A DNA stretch of 64,000 nucleotides from an uncultured bacterium (GCA_949292245.1 CASEYV010000001.1:52433-116432); one strand, 5' to 3'; counted from the stretch's first letter, positions 3,910-59,544 are shown. Notes: generated from the sequence alone by a model not told the origin. Translations and numbers: made by a program.

Positions 3910-3987
3910 TGGCATTCCCAGAGGGATTCGAACCCCCACTCTTTTCGTTCGTAGCGAAATGCTTTAGTCCAATTAAGCTATGGGAAC
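3910..3987 (-). tRNA. tRNA-Arg (anticodon ACG), CCA encoded
   Basis: The reverse complement folds as a cloverleaf. Acceptor stem is GTTCCCA/TGGGAAT, D-stem GCTT/AAGC with a GG loop, anticodon stem TTTCG/CGAAA around loop CTACGAA (U33, A37). T-arm is GGGGG TTCGAAT CCCTC, followed by discriminator G and CCA. Confidence 0.85.
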
Positions 3988-30588: not shown

Positions 30589-31116
30589 TTATTCAATATT
30601 TATAAGTTTAATTTCTTCTTCTTTTTCTTTTTTATCTTTAAATTCAATAGTCAAAAGACCATTTTCCAATGAAGATTTGACAAATTCTAATGAATCACAC
30701 ATCTTCCATGAATTTTCAAATTCTCTCATTGCGATACCTTTATAGCAATATACTCTTCCTTCACCATCACAAAAAACTCCACTTCCTTCCATAGTAAAAT
30801 CGTCTTTGCCCCTTTTTCCTTTTGAACCTTTAACAGTCAAGACATTAGTTTTTGTATTATATGTTATTTTTAACATATCTTTGGTATATCCAGCACAAGC
30901 TAACTGAATAAAAGTATGAACTTCTTTATGACAATCTGCTTCTTTACCATTGTCATTACAAACATTTACTTCTTCTGTAAAAATACTATATGGTGGGAAA
31001 GTTGTTTCTTTAAAAGAATTACTAAATTTATCTAAATCATCAAAAAAATCTGAAAATCCAATAAGATTACGTTTATTATTAAAGACATCAAAAAATGTCA
31101 TCAAATTATTTGCCAT
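30589..31116 (-). CDS. small heat-shock protein, Hsp20/alpha-crystallin family
   Basis: Alpha-crystallin-like core (ITYNTKTNVLTVKG...REFENSWKMCDSLEFVKSSLENGLLTIEF) and a C-terminal I-x-I motif (LINIE). Confidence 0.6.
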   Translation of the reverse strand: MANNLMTFFDVFNNKRNLIGFSDFFDDLDKFSNSFKETTFPPYSIFTEEVNVCNDNGKEADCHKEVHTFIQLACAGYTKDMLKITYNTKTNVLTVKGSKGKRGKDDFTMEGSGVFCDGEGRVYCYKGIAMREFENSWKMCDSLEFVKSSLENGLLTIEFKDKKEKEEEIKLINIE

Positions 31117-44610: not shown

Positions 44611-45114
44611 TTAAGAAATTTTTTTCGGTCTACCACGATTAGCAATTAATTTTATATTATTATCATTATCATATTTTACAGTGAATATTCTATTATTATA
44701 TTTTGGAGTAACATCATTAAGAAAAATAAATCTCTTTCCTTCTTTTAATTCAATACCATCAATACAACCTTCTTTTTTACCTATAACTTCATTAACAACA
44801 TCTGTTTCAATATCAATTTCTTCTATTTTATTATTTTCGGACATATCATACGCTTCTAAAATCTTTTCAACTGGCATATTTTCTATTTTAGATATTAAAG
44901 TATGGGGAATAAAAAATGGTTCTCTATTATTAGGAATAATTTCCTGAAAAATAATATCTATCATAATTTTTTTATTTTTTGTATCATTAATTATTTTATT
45001 AACAAAACAATTTTTATTTTTTATCGCTGGTATATTCACCATAATAATTGAATTATTACTTAAAATATTTCTTTCACATAATTTTTTTGCTTGTTCATAA
45101 GTCAATATAGTCAT
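44611..45114 (-). CDS. hypothetical protein
   Basis: 167-aa ORF. Confidence 0.35.
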   Translation of the reverse strand: MTILTYEQAKKLCERNILSNNSIIMVNIPAIKNKNCFVNKIINDTKNKKIMIDIIFQEIIPNNREPFFIPHTLISKIENMPVEKILEAYDMSENNKIEEIDIETDVVNEVIGKKEGCIDGIELKEGKRFIFLNDVTPKYNNRIFTVKYDNDNNIKLIANRGRPKKIS

Positions 45115-45119
45115 TATAA

Positions 45120-47354
45120 TTATTCCCCAAAATAAATTTTATTATCTTTTATTTTTAATAATATTTTTCCACCATTTTTATATTTTCCAAAAACAATATC
45201 TTTTGCTATCACATTTTTAATTTCATTAGTTATTATATGTTTCATAGGTCTAGCACCGTTATTGGAATTTTCAACCTTTTTAACGATATAATTTATTATA
45301 TCATCATTATATTCAAAATCAATCATTTTTTTTGACAAAATAGATTTTAATTCGTCCAAAAATTTTATGCAAATTGTTTTTAATACATCTGATGACAAAT
45401 TATTAAAAGTAATAGTTGAATCAATTCTATTTCTAAATTCAGGTAAAAATCTATCTTCATAATCTTGGTCAGATGGTGTATAATCATCATTACCAAAACC
45501 AATTCGTATTTTATGAGAATTATACGAACCGACATTTGATGTCATAATTAAATAAACATGCTCAAATGAAACTGATTTACCAGATGATGAAGTCAATTTA
45601 CCATTATCCATTACTTGTAATAAAACATTATGTATTTTAGAATTAGCTTTTTCAATTTCATCTAATAATAAAATACAAGATGGATGTTCATCAATAGCAT
45701 TAATTAATAAACCATTACCTGATTTACCATCTCCGAAACCTTTATATCCAGGAGGAGCACCTAGTAATTTAGACACACTATGTTCTTCCATATATTCAGA
45801 CATATCAAATCTAACCAATGGAATATTCAAAATTTTTGACAATACTTTACATATTTCTGTTTTACCGACACCAGAAGAACCTTTAAACATCAAAGATATA
45901 GCCGTTTTATTTGTTTCTCTTAATCCAGATTTAGAAATAATAACAGCTTCACTGACTTTTTTTACAGCTTCATCTTGTCCAATAATTTCTTTTTTTATAG
46001 TATTTTCTAAATTTTTATAAATTTCTTCTTCTGATAAAGAAATATTATTTAAAGGTATGCCTAATAATATAGACAATACTTTATAAATCATATCTTCTGA
46101 TATTTCTTTTTCATTGTGATATGTAGCATAAGCTCCGACTGTATCTAAAATATCAATCGCTTTTTCAGGAAAAAACTTATTATAAAAATATCTATTACAA
46201 TAATCCATTATTAAATCAATTATTTTTTCTGAAAAAGTAACATTAAAATTATTTTCATATAATGATTTAATATTCATTATAATATTTTTAGTTTCATCAA
46301 ATGATGGTTCTTTAACAGTAAATTTAAAAAAGTTTTTTACAAAATTGTCATCTTTTTCAATAAACCTACGATAATCTTCATTAGTTGTAATGCCAATAAT
46401 TTTAATTTTACCATCACAAAGCATTGGCTTAAATAATGATGATAAATCATTTTGACTTGAATAATCACCATTTCCACACATAAAATGTATGTCATCAATA
46501 ATTAAAACTACATTTTCTTTTTTATTTAAAATATTATGTAATGTTTTTACTCTATTTTCAATTTCACCTTTAACCATAATATTTGCAGTAAAAGATAAAT
46601 TATCTAATAATAGAAATTCTTTATCAGTATATTTTTCACTGTAAATTTTTGCCAAGCCTTCTACTAACTTAGATTTACCAACACCATGATTACCAACAAG
46701 TATAATATTTGGTTTATCATGTCTTAATAAAATATATTGTAACAACTCTAATTCATCATCACGACCAATTAAAGGTTGCCATTCTTTCCCCTTTACTTTT
46801 TCAGTTAAATTAATTGTATATTGTGATAAAAATAATTGTTCTTTTTTATTTGAAGAACCATCTAATGTTTCATTTATAATTTCTGATACACGATTAGACA
46901 TATTAGATGAATAAGATTGATAAATTTTTGTCAAAAATAATGGACTAACATTATTTGACAATAATATTTTTTGAGAAAAAGTTTCTTCCATAAACAAAAA
47001 AGATGCAATGACATTTGTTATAAATAAAACATCTTTATTTATAACAACATCTTCATTACATTTATGACATAGATTGCAATATCCTAAAAATACCAAAACA
47101 TGTGGAGAAATTTCTATATTATCGCTTGAACTTTCTATATGTTCCATTAAAGGATAATTAGAAATAAAATCTTCTAATTCTTTTGTAATTTTTTTATAAT
47201 CAATTTTATATTTTTTAAATAACTTTAAAAAATGTTCGTCTTTCATAACGACATATAAAACATGTTCCAAATGAACATATTTTGAACTATAATTTTGGGC
47301 CACTTTTTTTGATTCATTAATAAGTTCTTGTAATCTTTCAACAAAATCAATCAT
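45120..47354 (-). CDS. ClpA-like AAA+ unfoldase (Clp_N domain, two AAA modules, IGF ClpP-docking loop)
   Basis: D1 Walker A LVGNHGVGKS and D2 Walker A FKGSSGVGKTE. The sensor is GARPMKHII. KIRIGFGNDD...FRNRID aligns with the ClpA IGL loop RKSIGLIHQDN...FRNRLD. Confidence 0.8.
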   Translation of the reverse strand: MIDFVERLQELINESKKVAQNYSSKYVHLEHVLYVVMKDEHFLKLFKKYKIDYKKITKELEDFISNYPLMEHIESSSDNIEISPHVLVFLGYCNLCHKCNEDVVINKDVLFITNVIASFLFMEETFSQKILLSNNVSPLFLTKIYQSYSSNMSNRVSEIINETLDGSSNKKEQLFLSQYTINLTEKVKGKEWQPLIGRDDELELLQYILLRHDKPNIILVGNHGVGKSKLVEGLAKIYSEKYTDKEFLLLDNLSFTANIMVKGEIENRVKTLHNILNKKENVVLIIDDIHFMCGNGDYSSQNDLSSLFKPMLCDGKIKIIGITTNEDYRRFIEKDDNFVKNFFKFTVKEPSFDETKNIIMNIKSLYENNFNVTFSEKIIDLIMDYCNRYFYNKFFPEKAIDILDTVGAYATYHNEKEISEDMIYKVLSILLGIPLNNISLSEEEIYKNLENTIKKEIIGQDEAVKKVSEAVIISKSGLRETNKTAISLMFKGSSGVGKTEICKVLSKILNIPLVRFDMSEYMEEHSVSKLLGAPPGYKGFGDGKSGNGLLINAIDEHPSCILLLDEIEKANSKIHNVLLQVMDNGKLTSSSGKSVSFEHVYLIMTSNVGSYNSHKIRIGFGNDDYTPSDQDYEDRFLPEFRNRIDSTITFNNLSSDVLKTICIKFLDELKSILSKKMIDFEYNDDIINYIVKKVENSNNGARPMKHIITNEIKNVIAKDIVFGKYKNGGKILLKIKDNKIYFGE

Positions 47355-47991
47355 ATTTTTCTCTCATTGCTTCAAAAATTTTTTTATCGTCTTTTTCAAG
47401 ATTTACATTTTTTATTTTAAATTTAATATATAACGGATTTCTTTTCGAAATATTATATCTTTGAGGATAACCGGCATTTTCTATTTTTTTAGAAAACGAT
47501 GAATTAAATAATTCATTTGGTTTTATTTTAATTTTATATTTTTCCCCCAATGATACTATTTCTTTTTCAAAACCAAGAATAACATCAAATAAATTAATTT
47601 CAACTATTTTCGTTATAATTAAATCTGAATATTTACTATCGTATTTTATAATTTCATCATTTTCTGGAATTATATTGACGTATATTTTATATAATACACC
47701 ATTTTTATCTTCAATTTCAATACGATTTTTTTTATTATAAAATTTTTTTGATATTTTGATATCTATTCCATCACAATTTACTACACAACCTTGATATGCT
47801 TGTGTAGTTGTTATATCTATAACTTTATTATTGATTATTTTATTAATAAGACCTGATTGAATAGTAGTATCGTATAAAGATTTATATTTCATGAATAATT
47901 CAGCATTACCAGTTTCTTTATTATCTGGATGATATTTTTTAAATAATTGATTAAATGAATTTTTAAAATCTTTATAACTTTTAAAAAACAT
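47347..47991 (-). CDS. J-domain (DnaJ-like) co-chaperone
   Basis: FNQLFKKYHPDNKETGNAELFMKYKSLYD has the HPD tripeptide in J-domain context. Confidence 0.55.
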   Translation of the reverse strand: MFFKSYKDFKNSFNQLFKKYHPDNKETGNAELFMKYKSLYDTTIQSGLINKIINNKVIDITTTQAYQGCVVNCDGIDIKISKKFYNKKNRIEIEDKNGVLYKIYVNIIPENDEIIKYDSKYSDLIITKIVEINLFDVILGFEKEIVSLGEKYKIKIKPNELFNSSFSKKIENAGYPQRYNISKRNPLYIKFKIKNVNLEKDDKKIFEAMREKYD

Positions 47992-48026
47992 TATTATTCT
48001 CCTTTGTGAGAATAATAAATCATTTT

Positions 48027-48353
48027 TTATTGTTTGTCAATGTTTTTATTCATATTTTTCCATTGTAATCTTTCTTTATTAATTTCATCGACAAATTTTT
48101 CAAATAATAGTTTTTGTTCTCTATTAATTTCTTGATTTTTTAAATAACATTTAAAATTTTCTTCATCAAATCCGATAAAAATGTTCGAATCTTTGTTTTC
48201 AGGCATAGAAAATTTACAAGGAATATTTGATAAAATTAAAGGCGATTCAATTTGTGGTAAATCAGGATAAACATTTTTATAAACTATTTCTGTTCTTGTT
48301 GTTGAACAAGCACATAATGCAAAAGCTATTATTAAAAATATTATTTTTTTCAT
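48027..48353 (-). CDS. putative lipoprotein
   Basis: MKKIIFLIIAFALCACSTT is a signal peptide with Cys. Confidence 0.4.
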   Translation of the reverse strand: MKKIIFLIIAFALCACSTTRTEIVYKNVYPDLPQIESPLILSNIPCKFSMPENKDSNIFIGFDEENFKCYLKNQEINREQKLLFEKFVDEINKERLQWKNMNKNIDKQ

Positions 48354-56341: not shown

Positions 56342-57001
56342 TCAACAACTAAATACAAAATCAATCCATTTTTTAAAATTAGGATATTTTTCATATCTAT
56401 TTTCTTTTATAACTTTTAACATATTTAAAATATCTTTTTTATCATAGTTATATTTTTCAAATGGATATTTTATATCTGTTTTTTTATTTTTGTATCTTTT
56501 TAAACGATATTTTACAATTTCATTAAATATAATATCAAAATTTTTATCTTTAATATTATTGACCAAAGTAATTAACTCTATATCATCATTATTTAATGAT
56601 TCAAAATCATCGTTTTGATAATACATTGCTTTTTGTCTATTATACAGAATATTTAATTTATATGCTTGCATTGAAGTTAATTGTATATCGACATTATCAA
56701 AATAAGTTGAAGTATTATTTTCATTATCAATAAAATATATGTCTTTAATACTCTCAAAATTATCAACAATAATGTAGCAATTATAATTTATACTAAAAAA
56801 AGCATATTTTTTATTTCTAATATCACTCCATTCATGCATGAAATTTAAAGTATCAATATGAACTTCATCCAGAATATCACTAATAACAGATTCAAATCGA
56901 GTATATATTTCAAGTTGCTTAAAATCGTTTTCTGACATTTCTTTATTCATATAATCCATATCCATATACGGGTTTACAAATTGTTTAAAATCAATGTGCA
57001 T
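56342..57001 (-). CDS. hypothetical protein
   Basis: 219-aa ORF. Confidence 0.35.
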   Translation of the reverse strand: MHIDFKQFVNPYMDMDYMNKEMSENDFKQLEIYTRFESVISDILDEVHIDTLNFMHEWSDIRNKKYAFFSINYNCYIIVDNFESIKDIYFIDNENNTSTYFDNVDIQLTSMQAYKLNILYNRQKAMYYQNDDFESLNNDDIELITLVNNIKDKNFDIIFNEIVKYRLKRYKNKKTDIKYPFEKYNYDKKDILNMLKVIKENRYEKYPNFKKWIDFVFSC

Positions 57002-57714
57002 TAATTATACTCCGTAGTTTCACCTTTACGCAATTTATATGCTTCAGAAACCGATTTTACAAAGCATCTTCCTAAATCATCAACATATCTTTCATTAAGA
57101 GGTCTAATAACAACACCTTCTCTAATTTGGTCTTTATTAGTTCCCAATGTTGTTTTACCAGATGTCAATTCCATAACTTTATCATAAGAATATGGACCAA
57201 CATAAAGAGATGGAACTCTTTCAATTCCAACTTCATCGGCAAATTGCTTGCATTCTTCAAAATTAAGGAATCTTCCTTGTCTTGGTTTTCCAACATAAAC
57301 ATCAAATAATCTATATCCAACTTTACCATTTGTCAAACCATATTTCAAATCTTGCATACCATATGTTTCACCAAACAAAGTAACCATATCATTTTCTTGA
57401 TAAAGTTTTGAATTTACAACTTTTTCTTCGATATTATTTTCTTTAAATGCCCTAACATAATATGCGTTTTCATTAGAAGCATTATTTTTAAAGAATAAAC
57501 CTTTATCTCCTTGACCCTTTGAAGCAATATAAATATCTTTATTTTCGCCAAATGTTTCATCATTTGAATTACCTTTTGCAAAAATAAATCTTGTTTGAGA
57601 ATTGTGTACTAAAATATCATTAGCAAAAAAATTATGATTATATTCTACTTCAATATCATAACGTTTAGAATCATTTTTAATTTTCTTTATATTCTTTATT
57701 GTAAAAACCTTCAT
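57001..57714 (-). CDS. split-intein C-fragment (about 38 aa) fused to the C-extein of an Rnl2/Rnl5-type RNA ligase
   Basis: The start is probably the ATG at 57714 (RBS AGAGGTG). RYDIEVEYNHNFFANDILVHN|S matches intein blocks F and G ending in HN plus Ser. The extein carries ligase motifs III LFGETYG, IV YRLFDVYV and V EGVVIRP. Confidence 0.8.
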   Translation of the reverse strand: MKVFTIKNIKKIKNDSKRYDIEVEYNHNFFANDILVHNSQTRFIFAKGNSNDETFGENKDIYIASKGQGDKGLFFKNNASNENAYYVRAFKENNIEEKVVNSKLYQENDMVTLFGETYGMQDLKYGLTNGKVGYRLFDVYVGKPRQGRFLNFEECKQFADEVGIERVPSLYVGPYSYDKVMELTSGKTTLGTNKDQIREGVVIRPLNERYVDDLGRCFVKSVSEAYKLRKGETTEYN

Positions 57715-58920
57715 TTTCACCTCTTTCTATAAATTTTTTAATTATATCTTTAACTTTATCAAAATTTTCTTTAATATCTTTTTCCCAAACATATAAAACA
57801 TCATATCCCAAATGTTTATATTCCTTAAATTTTTGATAATCTTTATCCCACAATAATTTCGCTTTATCATTATAACCCCAAAATCTTATTAAATCATTTG
57901 ATTTGTAAATTTTTGGATTGGCGTGATAAATATCCCCATTAACTTCAATAATCTTATTGTTTATAACACAATCTGCATATTTAACTTTGTTATTACATAA
58001 TATTTTTTTATTGTTTATAACATCATATCCTTCACTAATTAAAAAATCAAGAACTTTCTTTTCAACTTTTGAAATTTTTCGTAATTGTGTTTTTCCTTTA
58101 TGATGAAATAATGAAATATGAGATTTAAATTTAATATCTTCTCTTTGAAAAATATTTGTTATCCCATAATCATCAAATAATTGTTGTTCCCATTTTTTAC
58201 GACTTTCAGTATTTTTACAAAAATTATGTTCATAACCAAAATTTTTTAAACAAGTTTCTTTATATCTTTGTTTTCTTTCAGCTTCATTGCAAGATTCTTT
58301 AATAGTTCTTGTATCAATATTAAAAAATTTCATTTTTTTAATAATTGCTTTTGTATTAATGCCTGTTTGTTCGCTTATCCATTTGGCAGAATGTCTATTA
58401 ACAATATATTCATTATATAAATATTCTTTTGTTAATATTTCATTTTTATATTTTTGATATTCATTACATTTTGCAAGATGTCCTTGCATAGAACCTTTAT
58501 GTCCATCTTTTTTTATTTCAACTTTCTTATGACAATATTTACAAATTTCGGTGTGCATCTTTTCTCCTTATTTTTAAAATATTTATCAGAAAAGATGCAC
58601 GATGTATCTTTTCAGTTATTATCAATTAATACAGTTTCTGTTCCATCTAAATCTTCAACTGCTCTATAAGCATTTAAGTTTTCACACCATACTAAATGAT
58701 TTCCTGTTAATTTAATAATTGAACCATCTTCTAACTCAATTAAATACCAATTATCAATATTTTCTTGTATAGATGTTCCTAAAACAGGACGATATTCAAT
58801 TTCTTTAGTATCTAAATTATAAGATTTTACCATATCATTTGTAATATCTTTTTCAACATATTCACCGATTTTTATTTTACCATATTTTAAAGAATCAATA
58901 ATAGTATTATAATCTGCACA
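57601..58920 (-). mobile_element. split mini-intein (IntN 58615-58920, IntC 57601-57714) flanking a free-standing homing-type endonuclease gene
   Basis: Canonical intein blocks A, B, F and G sit in two separate ORFs with an endonuclease ORF in a third frame between them. The insertion point is immediately after ligase motif I (KVHG|S). Confidence 0.7.
57677..58558 (-). CDS. free-standing endonuclease, Vsr-like/DUF559 (PD-(D/E)xK) with N-terminal zinc ribbon, inserted between the two intein halves
   Basis: Own RBS AAGGAG. CKYCHKKVEI....HLAKC is the zinc ribbon. C-terminal HLGYDVLYVWEKDI resembles the GYxVLRFWExE motif of Vsr/DUF559 endonucleases. Confidence 0.55.
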   Translation of the reverse strand: MHTEICKYCHKKVEIKKDGHKGSMQGHLAKCNEYQKYKNEILTKEYLYNEYIVNRHSAKWISEQTGINTKAIIKKMKFFNIDTRTIKESCNEAERKQRYKETCLKNFGYEHNFCKNTESRKKWEQQLFDDYGITNIFQREDIKFKSHISLFHHKGKTQLRKISKVEKKVLDFLISEGYDVINNKKILCNNKVKYADCVINNKIIEVNGDIYHANPKIYKSNDLIRFWGYNDKAKLLWDKDYQKFKEYKHLGYDVLYVWEKDIKENFDKVKDIIKKFIERGENEGFYNKEYKEN

Positions 58921-59544
58921 TCCATGAACTTTTTCAGTCGCTTCAAAAATTTCACCATCAATAAAAGCATCCATATATTTTTGAATTGGTTCTACATCAT
59001 ATGGAACAACAATTTCAGTTCCACCATTAAAGATTTCACCACCCATACTAGCAGGAATTGGTTGTTCATATTTTGTAATACCAAGAAAATCGGCAACATT
59101 TTCACCTTCGACAGCAGGTAGCCAACTTATATATGAAGTTTTTTCTGAAATAATAAATTTTTGGTCATCAGAATAACCCCATTGTTTAGCACAACCATGA
59201 CAACCCTCATCATATTCAGTTTCAGTCATAGCTGGATATAAAACACCTTCAGAAAAAATACCACGAAGTTTTAATGGTTTAACACGATTACCGTCTTTAC
59301 CAGCTAAAATACCTTTATTTTTTTCAAAATCCCAAAAATTCATTCTTTTAAGCAACCATTCAGGAAGAACAGCATTTTCAGGAATATATACTACCAAATC
59401 GCCAACATTATAACGGTCTGAACCATCTTCTAATTTATTGGAAATACAAGTATATCCACCAATTTTATACAATGTTAGTCTATCAGCATTTGGGTGATTT
59501 TCTTTTTCATCAATTTTAACTACTTTACATTCAAAATTTGCCAT
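58612..59544 (-). CDS. N-extein of an Rnl2/Rnl5-type RNA ligase (N-terminal HPNADRL domain plus motif I KVHG) fused to a split-intein N-fragment (about 102 aa)
   Basis: N-extein ..VVKIDEKENHPNADRLTLYKIGG...GDLVVYIP...EATEKVHG, then intein block A CADYNTIIDSLKYGKIKIGE and block B GSIIKLTGNHLVW, then stop. Confidence 0.8.
   Translation of the reverse strand: MANFECKVVKIDEKENHPNADRLTLYKIGGYTCISNKLEDGSDRYNVGDLVVYIPENAVLPEWLLKRMNFWDFEKNKGILAGKDGNRVKPLKLRGIFSEGVLYPAMTETEYDEGCHGCAKQWGYSDDQKFIISEKTSYISWLPAVEGENVADFLGITKYEQPIPASMGGEIFNGGTEIVVPYDVEPIQKYMDAFIDGEIFEATEKVHGCADYNTIIDSLKYGKIKIGEYVEKDITNDMVKSYNLDTKEIEYRPVLGTSIQENIDNWYLIELEDGSIIKLTGNHLVWCENLNAYRAVEDLDGTETVLIDNN

Follow-up and report, generated by a model that had tools for sequence, protein, structure and literature searches.

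A ClpA-like AAA+ protein with a predicted ClpP-docking loop and a degenerate first AAA+ module, encoded together with a minimal J-domain protein in an uncultured large phage

Here we examine two overlapping genes in a 64,000-nucleotide stretch of DNA recorded for an uncultured bacterium (GCA_949292245.1, CASEYV010000001.1:52433-116432; hereafter the window). The interval 45120-47991 holds two minus-strand open reading frames (ORFs): one for a ClpA-like double-ring AAA+ unfoldase (45120..47354; 744 aa plus stop codon) and, upstream of it, one for a 214-aa J-domain protein (47347..47991). The stop of the J gene lies over the start of the clpA-like gene in an 8-nt overlap (ATGATTGA). The window, with a G+C content of ~25%, is clearly of phage origin, encoding a UvsX-like recombinase, a single-stranded DNA-binding protein, tail-fibre proteins, a baseplate hub with lysozyme and virion structural proteins. 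Its nearest relatives are metagenomic contigs of 250-290 kb, and a ClpA-like protein 99% identical to that of the window (P0001), which itself gave no exact match on look-up, is found on a scaffold of 280,967 bp (ENA ERZ28613925, ONAT22-1_SAMEA6814560_METAG-scaffold_11). A megablast search with 20 kb of the window gave zero matches to close relatives among GenBank phages, as did an exact 31-mer search of IMG/VR with the window. The portion of the genome inspected comprises ~81 of ~281 kb, that is, the window and ~17 kb of flanks supplied by near-identical contigs (~10 kb past its high end and ~7 kb past its low end).

The larger product is a full-length ClpA-type double-ring AAA+ protein. It matches the NCBIfam ClpA model TIGR02639 in one stretch (positions 3-733 of 734; 607.2 bits, E 4e-182), the phage "ATP-dependent protease" profile phrog_4871 over residues 6-741 (profile 10-753 of 764; E 3.7e-194) and, colinearly, E. 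coli ClpA 1ksf (residues 12-737 vs 10-737; E 2e-121). Since 607.2 bits is below the TIGR02639 equivalog cutoff of 993.15, we use the label ClpA-like. Pfam finds Clp_N, AAA, AAA_lid_9, AAA_2 and ClpB_D2-small, with Clp_N (PF02861) represented by one repeat at 22.3 bits against a cutoff of 20.7. The AlphaFold model (predicted local distance difference test, pLDDT, 83.5) displays a helical N-domain, a disordered linker and two AAA+ modules, and superposes on the ClpA protomer of the ClpAP complex 7uiz_F with a template modelling (TM) score of 0.89 and a root-mean-square deviation of 3.4 Å. Thus the Clp_N domain and paired AAA+ modules described by an earlier reading of this DNA made from the sequence alone (the sequence-only reading) are recovered by Pfam, TIGR02639, the 1ksf alignment and AlphaFold. 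The N-domain (aa 1-148; 46911..47354, minus strand) is a Clp_N-type helical bundle, modelled as all-helical at pLDDT ~90 and followed by the linker (aa 151-167; pLDDT <50). Like E. coli ClpA (compared through PDB 1ksf, 7uiz and 6uqe), the protein has a colinear N-domain, D1, D2 and D2-small without an M-domain, the docking tripeptide in the corresponding place, a complete set of D2 motifs and the same fold; yet it is just 32-38% identical to it, has J-protein coding sequence upstream instead of an adjacent clpS, and belongs to a clade whose N-domains are ~16% identical to those of bacterial ClpAs. It is not a ClpB/Hsp104 protein: the M-domain is absent, an IGF loop is present and the alignment with ClpA is colinear, whereas ClpB and ClpV models align to it as two separate stretches only.

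The tripeptide I618-G619-F620 (45495..45503, minus strand), within KIRIGFGNDD, aligns with I617-G618-L619 of E. coli ClpA, after the D2 sensor-1. It falls in a flexible loop (aa 607-626; nt 45477..45536), the predicted ClpP-docking loop, which AlphaFold renders as coil at pLDDT ~58-66. In a protein of this composition IG[FL] is expected 0.59 times by chance; the evidence is therefore its position and conservation rather than its presence. Among the 34 full-length members of the clade (46-99% identity) the Ile is kept in 33, the remaining member having LGF, and the Gly and Phe in all, with the flanking residues varying. Beyond the clade, [ILMV]G[FL] occupies the docking position in all 80 IMG/VR relatives listed (80 of >570 matches); phages PA5oct and Phosso carry IGF and RaK2 carries IGV. 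The sequence-only reading had placed an IGF motif at the ClpA docking loop, and alignment and conservation agree with this. As judged from these comparisons, the predicted ability of the protein to dock on ClpP is well supported.

A feature that had escaped the earlier reading is the contrasting state of the two AAA+ modules. D1 (aa 191-440; 46035..46784, minus strand) keeps its Walker A motif (GNHGVGKS, 46671..46694), whereas its catalytic and substrate-gripping residues are degenerate. Aligned with E. coli ClpA, its pore-1 loop reads IMVKG in place of the canonical TKYRG (46566..46580), V261 being the equivalent of the tyrosine; its Walker B, LIIDDIH (46485..46505), has Asp for the catalytic Glu of IDEIH; and the arginine-finger positions hold K340 and N341 instead of RR (46332..46337). 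In D2 and D2-small (aa 441-744; 45123..46034, minus strand), Pfam and alignment find every motif intact: Walker A GSSGVGKT, pore loop GYKG, Walker B LLLDEIEKA, sensor-1 LIMTSN, arginine finger PEFRNRID and sensor-2 GARPM, the pore loop differing from the GYVG of E. coli ClpA. The D1 loop, MVKGEIENR, may resemble that of ClpV/TssH, a likeness that our literature search did not confirm.

The same contrast runs through the clade. None of the 34 members has KYR; at position 261 they carry L, V, I, M or F, compared with Y in seven of seven bacterial ClpAs. The D1 Walker A lysine is invariant (34/34) and the Walker B Glu is kept in 16; its loss pairs with loss of the arginine finger (E with RR, 15 members; neither, 14; mixed, 5). 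On the D2 side, Y537, K538, E566 and R643 are kept in 34/34, and the pore loop takes the clade-specific form GYK[G/D] in place of GYVG. Pairwise identity is 0.57 for the D1 large domain vs 0.77 for the D2 large domain, the most conserved region in the clade, while bacterial ClpAs show the reverse (0.66 vs 0.60). In a neighbor-joining tree the pore-loop change is common to the whole clade; the catalytic losses are scattered over several distinct branches with intact lineages in between, suggesting that the D1 catalytic residues decayed repeatedly and independently. PA5oct, Phosso, RaK2 and the other 79 IMG/VR relatives listed have a canonical D1 and GYVG, so far as these sequences tell, making the degenerate D1 and GYK loop specific to this clade.

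In published work on ClpA, D2 is the main motor and can function with D1 hydrolysis switched off; tyrosines of the D1 pore take part in engaging substrates directly and in forming the high-affinity complex with ClpS (PMC8666677; bioRxiv 10.1101/585554). We predict that the clade protein is a D2-driven machine with an inactive D1 and altered rules of substrate entry; with the D1 pore-loop tyrosine missing, entry probably bypasses the ssrA and ClpS routes that host ClpA uses. A ring that has lost D1 catalytic residues and the pore tyrosine but kept its docking loop could also be a decoy, capping host ClpP, blocking host ClpXP and ClpAP and so shielding phage proteins. A passive cap would not need a D2 motor, however, and here that motor (Walker A/B, pore tyrosine, arginine finger, sensor-2) is invariant in 34/34 and the most conserved part of the protein; about half of the clade moreover retains an intact D1 catalytic set. 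We regard such an inhibitor as very improbable.

The product of the upstream gene is a minimal class-B-like Hsp40, judging from HPD conservation, a PDB profile search, AlphaFold and Foldseek. It comprises a short J-domain (aa 1-52) with the HPD motif at H21-P22-D23 (codons 47923..47931, minus strand), two C-terminal domain (CTD) beta-sandwiches, CTD I and II (aa 56-195), and a C-terminal helix (aa 200-213). Its Pfam scores are under the cutoffs (DnaJ, PF00226, 17.7 vs 27.8; DnaJ_C, 24.8 vs 26.6), and the DnaJ match begins at profile position 14, indicating that helix I is missing. All 20 homologs, which occur only in the same phage clade, have KYHPDN unchanged, and the family profile matches J-domain proteins only when run against PDB. 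The AlphaFold model (pLDDT 86.8) places HPD between helices 6-20 and 30-45, these two long helices being accompanied by a short one. The top 45 Foldseek matches are all Hsp40/DnaJ proteins, led by Thermus thermophilus DnaJ 4j80 (E 8e-12), and the CTD matches (Sis1, Hdj1 and T. thermophilus DnaJ) range from E 1e-8 to 8e-12. The sequence has neither a glycine/phenylalanine (G/F) linker, the J-domain ending at ~aa 52 and CTD I starting from ~aa 56, nor a zinc finger (CxxCxGxG repeats absent). By conservation and modelled structure, we take its identity as a J-domain co-chaperone to be confirmed; the J-domain protein that the earlier reading saw beside the ClpA-like gene is thereby upheld, and the two genes overlap.

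With the class-B Hsp40s that lack a zinc finger (T. thermophilus DnaJ2 4j80, yeast Sis1, human DNAJB1/Hdj1), its best structural matches, the window protein shares the HPD J-domain, CTD I and II and the C-terminal dimerisation helix. Unlike them it has no G/F linker, its J-domain consists only of helix II, HPD, helix III and a short helix, and it is just 214 aa long, at 11-20% identity. Phage RB43 likewise encodes a J-domain protein, Rki, which has been proposed or shown to engage host DnaK and is not known to be linked to a ClpA-like gene. The RB43 protein is cited in PMC12619734.

The two genes are linked well beyond the window. In five clade loci (L001-L005) the full order is lipoprotein, J, ClpA-like, a 162-172-aa ORF, then virion and baseplate genes, and L009 repeats it with J, ClpA-like, a 162-aa ORF and a virion-protein-like ORF. 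Among the 80 IMG/VR matches listed, 67 loci have at least 1.5 kb of upstream sequence and are evaluable; in 65 of these the 3 kb upstream contain a same-strand gene for an HPD protein. The HPD gene is directly adjacent in 23 of the 65, and in the others mostly a ~165-aa ORF lies between, which is a peptide deformylase (PF01327, E ~1e-40) in all three representatives scanned (L029:9502-10008, L012:9543-10001 and L078:2897-3394). Three of the IMG/VR loci listed look bacterial, with clpS-clpA and IGL. Phosso has the order DnaJ-like, peptide deformylase, Clp. The occurrence of a peptide deformylase between DnaJ and ClpA-like genes in many phage contigs and in Phosso suggests a three-gene nascent-protein module. 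No peptide deformylase was found in the Pfam survey of the window, or between the J and clpA-like genes, whose overlap leaves no room for one.

Parts of this arrangement are already on record. In Atu_ph07 the ClpA gene gp292 adjoins the DnaJ gene gp293, and ClpA is described as strongly conserved across the Rak2-like group of jumbo phages (PMC6102473); the chaperones that Iyer et al. name for jumbo phages include ClpA, ClpX and DnaJ (PMC7824862). From its sequence relationships, the window pair is best described as a divergent, compact version of a widespread, already annotated phage module. Because the gene pair is known, observing it is ordinary, and what our analysis adds is the linkage evidence and the degenerate D1; the literature searched contained no paper on the DnaJ-ClpA linkage itself or its function. 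The nearest parallel is PA5oct, with a 287-kb genome, where EST35_0297 (DnaJ, ~230 aa) stands directly upstream of EST35_0298 (ClpA, with IGF), followed by virion structural genes. The PA5oct ClpA is, however, 33% identical to ours and keeps a canonical D1 (KYR, DE, RR) and GYVG; the J-proteins barely align (E 5e-4, J-domain only); and PA5oct has its own ClpP ~13 kb away, flagged as detected by mass spectrometry (MS) in virions. Atu_ph07 shares the adjacency of the ClpA and DnaJ genes and differs in also having ClpP (64% identical to E. coli ClpP), ClpS, ClpX and ClpB. RaK2 has its clpA among tail and virion genes, but with IGV rather than IGF and no J gene within 6 kb; all the Rak2-like phages, like Atu_ph07, have a canonical D1. 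The IMG/VR loci (L010-L088) resemble the window in the upstream HPD protein and the docking tripeptide, and differ in having full-length J-proteins (median 276 aa) that score above the Pfam DnaJ threshold, in many cases a peptide deformylase gene separating J from ClpA, a canonical D1 and GYVG, and a GC of 0.32-0.47 rather than ~0.25.

Where, then, is ClpP? Searching the window by tblastn with E. coli ClpP and ClpS gave nothing credible even at E<=10, and both families are absent from a Pfam survey of 62 other window ORFs, in keeping with the remark of the sequence-only reading that no ClpP is seen there. Its suggestion to look for clpP and clpS beyond the window could be followed in part: the ~17 kb of flanks hold neither gene, which extends the search to the ~81 kb inspected. 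There is likewise no ClpP within 10 kb of the clpA-like gene in L001-L005. In IMG/VR, ClpP occurs within 10 kb in two of the 80 loci listed, and no contig is shared between the ClpP-bearing and the ClpA-bearing matches listed (80 of >570 each).

That reading had gone on from the absence of ClpP to the use of the host's. We find this step weak, because cultured ClpA-bearing jumbo phages keep a clpP of their own far from clpA and ~200 kb of the genome is unseen. PA5oct, Atu_ph07, K64-1 and many RaK2-like phages have a full-length ClpP of their own (46% identical to E. coli ClpP in PA5oct, 64% in Atu_ph07, 35-38% in K64-1 and other RaK2-like phages), and clpP lies from ~13 kb (PA5oct) to ~250 kb (RaK2-like) from clpA. 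The catalytic triad is intact in the three phage ClpPs aligned. GenBank phage records of ClpA-like proteins and ClpP, counted by host genus, are nearly equal: Pseudomonas 11/11, Klebsiella 11/10, Salmonella 10/9 and Erwinia 8/8. The PA5oct ClpP homolog (L091; PQE65_gp212; NC_071039, 180349-181020), whose triad is intact, is annotated as "head maturation protease" and bears the electrospray ionization tandem MS (ESI-MS/MS) flag used for virion proteins. On this comparative analysis the partner ClpP is about as probably encoded in the rest of the phage genome as by the host, with a slight lean toward the phage.

The same data bear on the proposal that a phage without its own ClpP uses the unfoldase to redirect host ClpP against host proteins such as defence systems. 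The conserved IGF loop, the lack of ClpP in the inspected ~81 kb and its rarity beside clpA in IMG/VR agree with this, as does a substrate range unlike that of host ClpA, which the altered D1 pore loop and the divergent N-domain (16%) imply; in some jumbo phages ClpS has been proposed to steer host ClpAP (Iyer et al., PMC7824862). Against it stand the cultured ClpA-bearing jumbo phages, which bring their own ClpP at nearly equal record counts, the ~200 kb unseen, and the position of the genes in a late structural block and not among early takeover genes. No defence-related signal was found, so that nothing points to defence proteins as substrates, as the earlier reading had offered by way of example. 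We consider such a takeover of host ClpP unlikely.

The position of the genes invites another thought. The J and clpA-like pair heads a baseplate and tail gene block, as is also the case in PA5oct and RaK2, and it is a co-chaperone gene rather than a protease gene that is coupled to the clpA-like gene. Hexamer, J-protein and host DnaK could thus unfold, remodel or disaggregate large virion proteins with no degradation and no ClpP. E. coli ClpA is able to remodel proteins unaided, as a chaperone without ClpP. Translocase or virion-assembly roles have been suggested by Iyer et al. (PMC7824862) and Attai et al. (PMC6102473). A near-invariant IGF amid varying flanks is hard to explain without ClpP, however. 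The docking loop is absent from Hsp100 proteins that do not use ClpP, ClpB among them, and the ClpP-bound structures of ClpB among our matches (5ofo, 4d2q) are engineered ClpB-ClpA chimeras. The M-domain for Hsp70 coupling is absent as well, and the IGV of RaK2 may mark a relaxation confined to that lineage. On balance we hold a purely ClpP-independent assembly chaperone to be rather doubtful.

Overall, the account that we judge probable is one in which the J-protein activates host DnaK while a D2-driven ClpA-like hexamer docks through IGF on ClpP, of phage or host, and feeds it substrates, in late proteostasis or morphogenesis. The two genes, at the head of the baseplate and tail block, would be translationally coupled. 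Through its HPD motif the J-protein would switch on host Hsp70 (DnaK), and its CTD beta-sandwiches would hold client polypeptides. The ClpA-like protein would assemble into a hexamer in which D1 binds ATP, mostly without hydrolysis, and the D2 ring alone threads substrates. Six IGF loops would then dock the hexamer on the ClpP tetradecamer, which would degrade the threaded chain; substrates more likely enter through the divergent N-domain or delivery factors.

Several points weigh against this account. Known systems couple Hsp70 to ClpB through the M-domain, absent in the window protein, and to our knowledge a functional hand-off from J-protein and DnaK to ClpA is without precedent. Docking competence by itself is no proof of a proteolytic role, given that ClpA works as a chaperone without ClpP. 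No ClpP was found in ~81 of ~281 kb; the score of the protein falls short of the ClpA equivalog cutoff; the neighbor-joining tree carries no bootstrap support; and late expression is deduced solely from gene position. The literature searched offers no experimental evidence on any phage ClpA-like protein. The sole clue to the host is the Shine-Dalgarno-like motifs that precede 59 of 73 window ORFs, vs a background of 7.7%; a literature search on the sample accessions yielded neither environment nor host. Frequent motifs of this kind argue against a Bacteroidota-type host. The "Moraphages", for which ClpA, DnaJ and Hsp20 are core and Bacteroidota hosts are predicted, were considered; the related scaffold is absent from their table, and we left the phage unassigned.

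A bolder version of the D2-driven machine would have the pore tyrosine lost at the base of the clade and D1 then decaying repeatedly into an ATP-binding ring that neither hydrolyses nor grips, its substrates coming from the co-translated J-protein and host DnaK and no longer by way of ssrA or ClpS. If this were true, a relay from Hsp70 to ClpA to ClpP would have been built by a virus, for degradation or quality control, and the near-universal DnaJ-(peptide deformylase)-ClpA linkage would reflect it. This we regard as a long shot.

Around the pair, the window holds further genes of note. Directly 5' of the J gene, on the minus strand, lies a promoter-like TTGACA-17-TATTAT (48012..48040; 11 of 12 matches) followed by the Shine-Dalgarno AAAGGAG, which is weak evidence; promoter-like sites are not enriched in this AT-rich region, with 106 found vs 106.6 expected from shuffles. 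Also directly 5' is a minus-strand gene (48027..48353) whose 108-aa product carries a lipoprotein-type signal peptide (MKKIIFLIIAFALCAC...) and is strongly conserved in L002 and L005. On the other side, a 167-aa ORF (44611..45114, minus strand) starts 5 nt past the ClpA-like gene, and its counterpart overlaps that gene in the relatives L002, L005 and L009. It is conserved in the clade, ends in a conserved, AT-hook-like RGRPKK and has zero matches in Pfam, PHROGs and PDB. A ClpS-like adaptor was considered and set aside, as there is no ClpS similarity; so was homology to the PA5oct structural protein at the same position, where again no similarity was seen. A role as an adaptor or in DNA binding is conceivable.

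An Hsp20/alpha-crystallin protein (30589..31116, minus strand; PF00011, 28.1 bits; 29% identical to E. coli IbpA) bears out the mention of an Hsp20 in the earlier reading. Its gene is 14 kb from the ClpA module and outside the module's conserved synteny; of the chaperone partnership once imagined with the DnaJ-like and Hsp20 proteins, the coupling to the J-protein therefore stands and the Hsp20 link falls away.

Elsewhere, an RNA ligase gene (57001..59544, minus strand) is split by a ~1.3-kb insertion (57598..58920) relative to the 95%-identical contig L089, which encodes an intact 407-aa RNA ligase. The downstream piece begins with a sub-threshold match to the C-terminal part of the Intein_splicing model (26.7 vs 35.8 bits). 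A 293-aa ORF without a Pfam match lies within the insertion, in a different frame, and no Rfam intron was found; the insertion is possibly an intein in decay, or else some other mobile element. The 98%-identical relative L090 carries, at L090:1-950, an RVT_1 reverse-transcriptase gene where its sequence diverges from the window (~12276), as well as a 1208-aa Mtd_N tail-fibre protein. Two window ORFs match Mtd_N, and no reverse transcriptase was seen among the window ORFs. On these grounds, a diversity-generating retroelement may be at work on the tail fibres of this group of phages. The sole tRNA of the window is tRNA-Arg(ACG) (3910..3987). RNA/tRNA-repair and NAD/ADP-ribose genes are represented by RNA ligases, a poly(A) polymerase-family (PolyA_pol) nucleotidyltransferase, cREC_REC, PTH2, Macro and ART-PolyVal, and several DNA methylases are encoded too.

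Our findings illustrate how strongly the ClpP-docking loop appears to be selected in phages. The near-constant linkage to a J-protein gene, in many cases with a peptide deformylase gene as well, suggests that phages have a module of their own for nascent proteins and proteostasis. The clade itself looks like an experiment of nature: the tyrosine of the D1 pore was lost first, the hydrolysis residues followed repeatedly, and D2 was left intact. For specialists in AAA+ proteins, such decay of D1 lends independent support to the division of labour between D1 and D2 inferred from ClpA mutants.

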